A DNA stretch of 64,000 nt from Escherichia coli (lineage in GTDB: Bacteria > Pseudomonadota > Gammaproteobacteria > Enterobacterales > Enterobacteriaceae): the NCBI RefSeq assembly GCF_044324785.1, contig NZ_CP172127.1; one strand, given 5' to 3'. The notes beneath the pieces were generated by a model. It searched no databases. It was not told where the DNA came from and worked only from the letters and a program-made list of their open reading frames with translations. Positions 13,988-31,198 of this stretch are shown here, one piece after another. The translations under genes were made by a program, and so were the position numbers. The number at the start of each line of letters is the position of its first letter. Position 1 is the first letter of the stretch.

Positions 13988-14020
13988 GACTCCCCCGCTT
14001 CACGCGGGGGAGTTTTCTGT
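13988..14020 (+). terminator. Rho-independent terminator after yccJ (CTCCCCCGC-TTCAC-GCGGGGGAG + TTTT)
   Basis: 9-bp GC-rich stem followed by a T-run; abuts the agp stop. Confidence 0.7.
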
Positions 14021-29608: not shown

Positions 29609-29821
29609 TTGTCCCGTAAAATGACAGGAATTGTCAAAACCTTTGATCGCAAAAGCGGCAAAGGATTCATTATCCCCTCCGACGGTCGTAAAGAAGTCCA
29701 GGTCCATATTTCCGCATTCACTCCCCGCGACGCAGAAGTGCTTATACCAGGATTACGCGTGGAATTTTGCCGCGTAAATGGCCTGCGAGGACCAACAGCG
29801 GCAAATGTTTATTTGTCTTGA
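29609..29821 (+). CDS. cspH: Cold-shock-like protein CspH, 70 aa
   Basis: Csp-fold translation [37 protein letters not shown]...; divergent from cspG. Confidence 0.85.
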
Positions 29822-31119
29822 TGGAGAGCGCACGCCGGTATGCGTGCTTCATTCACGATTTGCGTAAAACCGGCCAACGAACACATGCCCTGCGCGTTTC
29901 GCTCTTCACATCCTGCCAGGGTCAGTTTCACCTCTCCGGGCGGCGTATTTAATGATAGCGGCGTTTTATCACGCATCTGCTGTAAAGTCTGGAAGACCAG
30001 CGAAACCTGAATCCAATGGCTGTTATCGCTTAGCCGACGCCAGCGTTCAAACACCAGTTCACCACCTGGCGGTGTGTTATCCGGCTGACCTGGAAGCGTC
30101 CAGTTGAGCTCCAGTGCGCCGCCGAGATTTGCCAGATTAGTATCGTGTCCGGCAATAAACAGCACTGAAGTGGGTAATGTCACACCATACGCCTGTTTTT
30201 GCGGTGGATGGGGCGTCAACGCTGCCATGATCAAATCCAACAACGGGGTGGCGCGGCTGCGGGCAACCTCTGGCGTGCGTTGTAGCAAATAAAACTGCGC
30301 GTTATGCAAACTTAGCAAGGTGTTCCACTGGTGTGAATCGGTAATCCTTCCCCACCCCGGCTCCGGCATTCCCTGTGCCTGTTGCAGGAGAAATATCTCC
30401 GTCAGCATTGACGCGAGGCTTACCGCACCGGTTAATGAGACATTGTCGGCGCTCACCTTGAGTTCCGATGGTAATGCCTGCGTTAATGAACAGCTTTCGT
30501 CCTGTTTCTCACGGTTAAGGCACAAGTTTGATTGCGGAAAATTAAGCACTCGTTCCAGTTCGCGAAACGCCGTTTGCCGATGCCCGGTAAAGTCAGCAAT
30601 TGACCCTCCTGCCCTGCTGAGGATCGCGTCAGTCACGTTCGCGTTATCCAGTTGGCAAACGCCAGTTTTTAGAGGATTAAATAACGGATCGGGACTGGAC
30701 GTATCTGCCTGGGCATGTACGGTTATTGCACAGTCAGGTGCCAGCCCGGCGGCGAAGGCTTCGCCTGTTTTACGGGTACGCTCGTCGACATCAGCAATAA
30801 TCGCGACCTGACCAGGCTGCGGGCAGCCCTTTTTCGCCAGCAATCCGTCAGCCACCAGACGCTGGCGTTGGTAATGTCCGAGATAGGCGATCAGCTCACC
30901 ACCGCGCGGTGTCAGCCAACCCAGTTTTACCGGCCAGGTTGGCCATGCGTCTGGGGTGACATCCTGCATCAGTTGCGTGGCCTTGGTTGGTGCACGCACA
31001 CCATGACGACTGACAATCACCACACTTTCCAGCTTCAGCTCCGGCTCACTCTGAGCGAATGCAGATTGCGGGGTGAACGGAATCAGAAGAGATAAGAATG
31101 GGATCAAGATCGCTTTCAT
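29809..31119 (-). CDS. appA: Periplasmic acid phosphatase / phytase AppA, with a variant C-terminus
   Basis: ORF 29809..31149 trimmed to [14 protein letters not shown]...; RHGVRAP motif; ends ...[10 protein letters not shown] where I recall ...IPACSL in K-12. Confidence 0.88.
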
Positions 31120-31158
31120 CGATATGTTTCCGCTTTTCATATCCGACATTATTGATTG

Positions 31159-31189
31159 CCTGATGCGACGCTAATGCGCCTCATCAGGC
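31159..31189. repeat. REP-like palindrome GCCTGATGCG...CCTCATCAGGC
   Basis: 8-bp inverted arms between appA and appX. Confidence 0.5.
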
Positions 31190-31198
31190 TTACGTTCG

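Follow-up and report, generated by a model that had tools for sequence, protein, structure and literature searches.

The cspH-appA site of an Escherichia coli without group 4 capsule genes is probably an empty allele that was never occupied

The group 4 capsule (G4C) operon of E. coli, gfcABCDE-etp-etk, was formerly named ymcDCBA-yccZ-etp-etk. In K-12, the stop codons of cspH and appA lie 9047 bp apart, and the interval holds etk, etp, gfcE-A and IS1D, the last being an additional element upstream of gfcA. The EPEC O127:H6 strain E2348/69 carries the operon at the same position, with 8277 bp between the two stops and no IS1. Pan-genome work has described the seven G4C genes as lineage-specific and opposed to kps, the G4C set being reported as specific to bovine-associated E. 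coli lineages while kps group 2/3 capsule genes mark human-associated ones (PMC6724679). Other studies regard G4C as a fitness factor whose presence varies (bioRxiv 10.1101/096479; PMC6678207).

Here, we analyze a 64-kb stretch of E. coli DNA, hereafter the window, in which the cspH-appA site is empty. Such an empty site is an already known gene-content polymorphism, and its common allele is annotated by RefSeq. What is likely to be mildly new is the probable never-occupied state of the site, a 12-nt origin for the gene overlap and for the AppA tail, and the occurrence of the two alleles together in more than one species of Escherichia. The locus has little importance beyond strain typing.

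The cspH-appA locus of the window

The window has the same chromosomal position as the G4C-bearing alleles of K-12 and E2348/69, with flanking genes that are 97-99% identical. It differs from them in lacking all seven genes, their promoter region and their terminator hairpin. The features of the locus are as follows.

29609..29821, plus strand: cspH, intact, 70 aa, CspA family, with the stop TGA at 29819..29821 (open reading frame, and annotation of identical RefSeq genomes).
29809..31119, minus strand: appA, periplasmic acid phosphatase/phytase, 436 aa, tail ...PACALHQDK, with the stop at 29809..29811 (TTA on the plus strand).
29809..29821: convergent overlap of cspH and appA, 13 bp (open reading frame coordinates).
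29822..29829: TGGAGAGC, putatively what is left of the non-coding spacer that ancestrally separated cspH and appA (alignment with L012 and L015, both distant relatives, and offset scan).

Within the overlap, the AppA codons for K, D, Q and part of H, together with the stop, run antisense to Val-Tyr-Leu-Ser-stop of cspH. On the minus strand, TGGAGAGC now codes for part of the His and for the Leu and Ala of the AppA tail. In identical RefSeq genomes, appA is annotated at 1311 nt and overlaps cspH. The annotated overlap and the length of AppA (13 bp and 436 aa) are real, and the gene model should not be "corrected" to that of K-12.

None of the seven K-12 gfc, etp and etk proteins was matched by tblastn in the 64-kb window, whether between cspH and appA or elsewhere. 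The only extra match was agp, a 33%-identical paralogue of AppA. This is a strain without the G4C (O-antigen capsule) export machinery at the cspH-appA locus, and it would be unable to export such a capsule through that locus. An earlier note on this DNA, made from the sequence alone, had described the convergent genes with their 13-bp 3' overlap, the absence of gfc-etp-etk, an AppA C terminus that departs from the IPACSL of K-12, and a non-K-12 lineage. All of these are borne out, and the gene order it gave for K-12 (cspH-IS1-gfc-etp-etk-appA) is right.

Both proteins are typical members of their families. CspH is a 70-aa cold-shock-domain protein of the CspA family, identical to K-12 CspH over 100% of its residues, and cspG lies divergently upstream on the other strand. 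The cspG leader contains the Rfam cspA thermoregulator RF01766 (29057-29479, minus strand; 157 bits, E 3.5e-42), as expected for cspG; the Rfam search of the window returned no RF01766-like match upstream of cspH. AppA is 98.3% identical to K-12 AppA over 415 aa. It belongs to the histidine acid phosphatase/phytase family (His_Phos_2, PF00328): RHGVRAP and GHDTN are readable in the translation, PF00328 is precomputed for close AppA homologues, and the C-terminal Cys is retained. The appA open reading frame reaches an in-frame upstream ATG at 31149, and the RefSeq start is at MKAIL (436 aa). The upstream ATG (31120-31149, minus strand) would add MSDMKSGNIS to AppA, an extension that is also kept in cryptic-clade loci and in some 446-aa database entries.

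The AppA tail is where the window departs from K-12, ending ...PACALHQDK rather than ...PACSL followed by a stop (TGC AGT TTG TAA). Distant AppA homologues, for example from Kosakonia, terminate in C[SGA]L, as do those of L012 and L015, which end CGL or CSL. The four-residue HQDK extension is therefore the derived state. It is probably harmless or neutral, because the C-terminal cysteine is kept.

The junction in relatives and a candidate 12-nt deletion

We find the same gene neighborhood in more distant relatives, L012/L013 and L015, recovered from Logan assemblies (SRR26188688 and SRR33454298), whose AppA is 78-81% and whose CspH is 83-84% identical to that of K-12. The appCBX-appA-cspH synteny is kept, both genes are intact and convergent, and there is neither gfc nor overlap. 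The spacer from cspH stop to appA stop is 12 or 8 nt long in these relatives, the junctions reading cspH-TGA ATGAAGAGAGCG TTA-appA in L012 and cspH-TAA AGAGTGCA TTA-appA in L015. The empty-site junction, TGA-TGGAGAGC-GCACGCC, is that of the window.

Closer to E. coli, the same convergent overlap occurs in representatives of four other Escherichia species (L004-L007), including E. whittamii and Escherichia sp. E1V33. These four loci came from an AppA search of GTDB representative genomes with peptide patterns that were specific to the window, which gave no E. fergusonii locus; E. albertii was reached via the protein database. A cryptic-clade contig, L016, also has the empty architecture. In all of these empty sites, the overlap has the same length as in the window and AppA shares the tail pattern C-x-L-[H/Y]-Q-D-K. 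They differ in the codons that precede the shared end: L005, L006 and L016 retain the original Ser-Leu codons (type 2), whereas the window, L004 and L007 read former spacer (type 1). In the sense of appA, the junctions are as follows.

L015: TGC AGT TTG TAA TGC ACT CTT TAA GAT AGA TAA
L012: TGC GGC TTG TAA CGC TCT CTT CAT T CAG GAA AGA TAA
Window: TGC GCT CTC CAT CAA GAC AAA TAA
L007: TGC TCT CTC CAT CAG...
L004: TGC ACT CTC TAT CAG...
L005, L006 and L016: TGY AGY TTA YAT CAG

We ran an unbiased offset scan of these junctions, in which the 9 nt after the AppA Cys codon were matched against the outgroups L012 and L015. For the window, L007 and L004, the best offset is +12 nt, inside the non-coding spacer, with 7/9, 8/9 and 7/9 matches, respectively; at offset 0, the three give just 2-5/9. 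The type 2 junctions, TGA-T[GA]-TAAACT in the sense of cspH, match best at offset 0 (5-7/9). A MAFFT alignment of eight junctions gave a single common gap and treated the difference between the types as substitutions. It could not split the two types and was replaced by the scan.

This pattern leads us to infer two alternative 12-nt deletions. The type 1 deletion, that of the window, would have removed Ser-Leu-stop and three further nucleotides, so that old spacer is read as Ala/Ser/Thr-Leu-His/Tyr. The type 2 deletion would have kept Ser-Leu and removed the stop and spacer. In the window, the appA frame would then cross the former spacer (Ala-Leu-His) and the antisense of the cspH end (Gln-Asp-Lys) to reach a new stop inside cspH, creating the 13-bp overlap. 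The AppA tail of about a third of E. coli would in this way be coded by former spacer and antisense cspH sequence. The deletion point appears to be the right edge of TGGAGAGC, at about 29829/29833, and is ambiguous there because GCA is repeated.

Replication slippage is a plausible cause. In L015, the stretch deleted in the window has a short direct repeat, TGCA(T), on each side, a hint that the deletion arose by slippage between the copies. L015 also contains a 12-nt imperfect tandem repeat, TGCAGTTTGTAA / TGCACTCTTTAA, that is identical at 9/12 positions. As an explanation of the two alternative deletions it is a suggestion only, being absent from L012, where the equivalent stretches agree at 4/12.

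Homology between the window junction and the spacer is probable, and rests on about 9-11 nt of low-complexity, GA-rich sequence of the GAGAG type. The deletion predicts an intermediate, an empty site with intact spacer and appA stop. We did not find it in the E. coli or cryptic clades examined, and JGI metagenome contigs, scanned for empty sites without the overlap, gave 0 matches.

Three genomes filed under E. coli, EC596 (L019, NZ_CP156718.1), SCPM-O-B-8794 and E69 (L004/L005), have an appA that is about 84-89% identical in nucleotides to that of K-12. The junctions of EC596 and SCPM-O-B-8794 are identical to each other and different from those of E. coli proper. All three are probably cryptic-clade Escherichia.

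Distribution of empty and occupied alleles

The empty site is a common allele in E. coli. Using 501 nt across the window junction as a query that had to align as one piece, we found the contiguous cspH-appA junction in 1674 of 5426 complete E. coli genomes, at 98.2-100% identity. The K-12-type appA/etk junction is present in 3739, and only 13 have neither, giving a site that is 31% empty and 69% occupied. The junction of the window is base-for-base identical to those of ABU 83972, B2.3, ST648 and AST215. RefSeq gfc-less genomes (e.g., ABU 83972, ST648, N3 and AST215) share this junction, the 13-bp overlap and the 436-aa AppA, and in them cspH and appA are annotated as two intact genes.

Site state is not strictly bound to phylogroup. 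E2348/69 and 042 are occupied; ABU 83972, PCN033 and an O7:H15 ST70 strain are empty. We take ABU 83972, B2.3 and E2348/69 to be phylogroup B2, ST648 to be F, and 042, PCN033 and the O7:H15 ST70 strain to be D.

The lineage of the window itself is rare. Over 24 kb, N3 is the only strain to reach 99% identity (99.7%), the next genomes being at 98.3%. Along 42.9 kb, the window and N3 are collinear and 99.6% identical. One difference lies between yccJ and agp, where N3 carries a 1.4-kb insert that holds three hypothetical genes (L014, 5491-6921); in the window, as in K-12, yccJ and agp are joined directly (13998-14020). Another difference in gene content concerns E2348/69, where a lambdoid prophage (integrase, excisionase, kil, ssb) lies directly upstream of a torS that is annotated as frameshifted (L003, 5684-9791); in the window, torT and torS are adjacent and intact.

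Among E. coli genomes with and without gfc, we found no fixed differences in the 255 nt of cspH or the 430 nt of appA beside the junction. The phylogeny of the flanks therefore cannot date the alleles. Recombination has apparently homogenized the flanks, all but the junction itself.

The polymorphism of the capsule operon extends outside E. coli. E. albertii carries a full gfc operon at the same site, with 81-93% nucleotide identity to K-12, compared with 82-92% for the flanks. One cryptic Escherichia species has both alleles in Logan assemblies: L009 (SRR31021684) is occupied and L016 (SRR31284072) is empty, with a type 2 junction. The hya-app flanks of these two contigs are 99.75% identical over 11.3 kb.

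The complete seven-gene cassette is also found in other genera, at sites unrelated to cspH-appA. In Enterobacter hormaechei it lies between ligB and yicG-type genes, and in Citrobacter freundii it lies beside dcuSR. The order of the seven genes is the same as in K-12, and GfcD is 80-81% identical to K-12 GfcD. The cassette thus behaves as a transferable unit.

Origin of the empty site and readings of the overlap

We consider it probable that the window carries an empty-site allele that was never occupied by gfcABCDE-etp-etk, and that its overlap and AppA tail arose from a later 12-nt deletion. The ancestor would have had cspH and appA as convergent neighbors about 8-12 nt apart, with AppA ending in Cys-Ser/Gly-Leu-stop. 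The occupied allele would have arisen by a single insertion into this same spacer of a capsule cassette, 8.3 kb long, that brought along a promoter region and a strong terminator hairpin. The other allele would have stayed empty and then acquired the micro-deletion.

Ancestral absence of the operon is favored because an uninterrupted spacer is still readable and because the junction is common to other Escherichia species. The insertion would be about as old as the crown of the genus, because the divergence of E. albertii gfc resembles that of its flanks. Both alleles are old, and each of them is found in E. coli as well as in one or more cryptic Escherichia clades. They coexist across species boundaries, and the empty state looks like the primitive condition, not like a loss. 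Against this reading, the empty allele would have to have persisted for a long time or been re-introduced. Of the two origins between which the earlier note did not choose, ancestral absence and a deletion scar, the first is favored for the operon; the micro-deletion behind the overlap and tail had not been foreseen there.

More tentatively, the presence and absence of the G4C operon might form an ancient polymorphism that is kept, or repeatedly exchanged, across several Escherichia species, pointing to long-term balancing selection on capsule state, with the window as a never-occupied relic marked by a 12-nt slippage deletion. We regard this as possible but doubtful. If true, the selective pressure could be, for example, phage or host.

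Alternatively, about 8.3 kb could have been lost in one deletion, with one end point close behind the cspH stop and the other within the final appA codons, and the resulting allele could have spread through Escherichia. Among the named outgroups sampled, E. albertii is the deepest, and it is consistent with this, having gfc at the site with a divergence equal to that of the flanks. So is the near identity of the flanks of L009, with gfc, and L016, without it. In addition, TAT/TA microhomology at both junctions of occupied alleles would give exactly the type 2 junction of L016, L005 and L006. Because the type 2 junction could equally have arisen by deletion through TAT microhomology, some lineages may have lost gfc.

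The junction of the window is harder to explain in this way. Occupied alleles were examined in K-12, E2348/69, E. albertii and L009. In all four, TGCA, which is the spacer's right end, comes after the appA stop, ahead of the A-tract and hairpin of the cassette. On the other side, cassette sequence follows the cspH stop, with nothing left of the CTCT/GAGAG part of the spacer. A simple deletion therefore cannot yield the window junction, which contains GGAGAGC. This motif is absent from both flanks in all four occupied alleles, and it matches gfc-less spacers at the in-frame +12 offset. The window junction is thus not made only of flank sequence from occupied alleles, although the basis for this comparison is short (9-11 nt). 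The end of cspH also separates the alleles: all empty alleles examined read ...TCY TGA, as does L012, whereas all occupied ones read ...TCT TAA, as does L015. Furthermore, two independent distant relatives are gfc-less with both genes intact 8-12 nt apart, and the cassette is mobile between genera, as its sites in E. hormaechei and C. freundii attest. We therefore judge a deletion scar to be an unlikely origin for the window allele, and retain the never-occupied site as the preferred reading.

The overlap also bears on transcription. A scan of 29780-29900 detected no terminator-like site between the convergent stops, and terminator and promoter scans, RNA folding and Rfam search at the junction all gave nothing significant. 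Folding of the junction is no better than that of shuffled sequence (z -0.6 and -0.9), and no Rfam family matches there. A structured regulatory element at the junction was dropped as a candidate on these results. The hairpin at the K-12 appA/etk junction, in contrast, is strong (z -3.9 and -4.6), with A and U tracts on either side of its 11-bp stem, and is part of the insert. Because no intrinsic terminator separates the convergent genes, we infer that cspH and appA transcripts must overlap in empty-site strains.

It is very improbable that the 13-bp overlap, instead of being a neutral by-product, is a selected device by which cspH and appA exert mutual antisense control through their 3' ends. 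Its conservation across several species and the lack of an intergenic terminator would fit such a device, as would an 8-nt inverted repeat inside cspH that is kept in L012 and L015. However, this repeat is conserved coding sequence without a U-tract, and the junction neither folds better than shuffled sequence nor matches an Rfam family. The overlap is also absent from two thirds of E. coli, and two different deletions of the same 12-nt length fit frame constraints as well as they fit selection. Misassembly, a possibility raised in the earlier note, in which contig collapse or a false join would have removed the capsule locus, is ruled out with near certainty: 1674 independently finished genomes, and other Escherichia species too, show the identical junction as a single alignment without interruption, and the window is collinear with N3.

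The inverted repeat in cspH (TTTGCCGC / GCGGCAAA; 29766-29773 and 29798-29805) is a perfect 8-nt match with a 24-nt loop, and in RNA of the appA sense its hairpin would form shortly after the appA stop. At the other end of appA, sub-threshold Rfam matches to naRNA4, a REP-derived nucleoid-associated RNA, lie on both strands at 31100-31190 (31.5 and 22.3 bits; the gathering threshold is 59.5). They cover the appA 5' end and the appA-appX spacer, and probably represent a REP-like palindrome.
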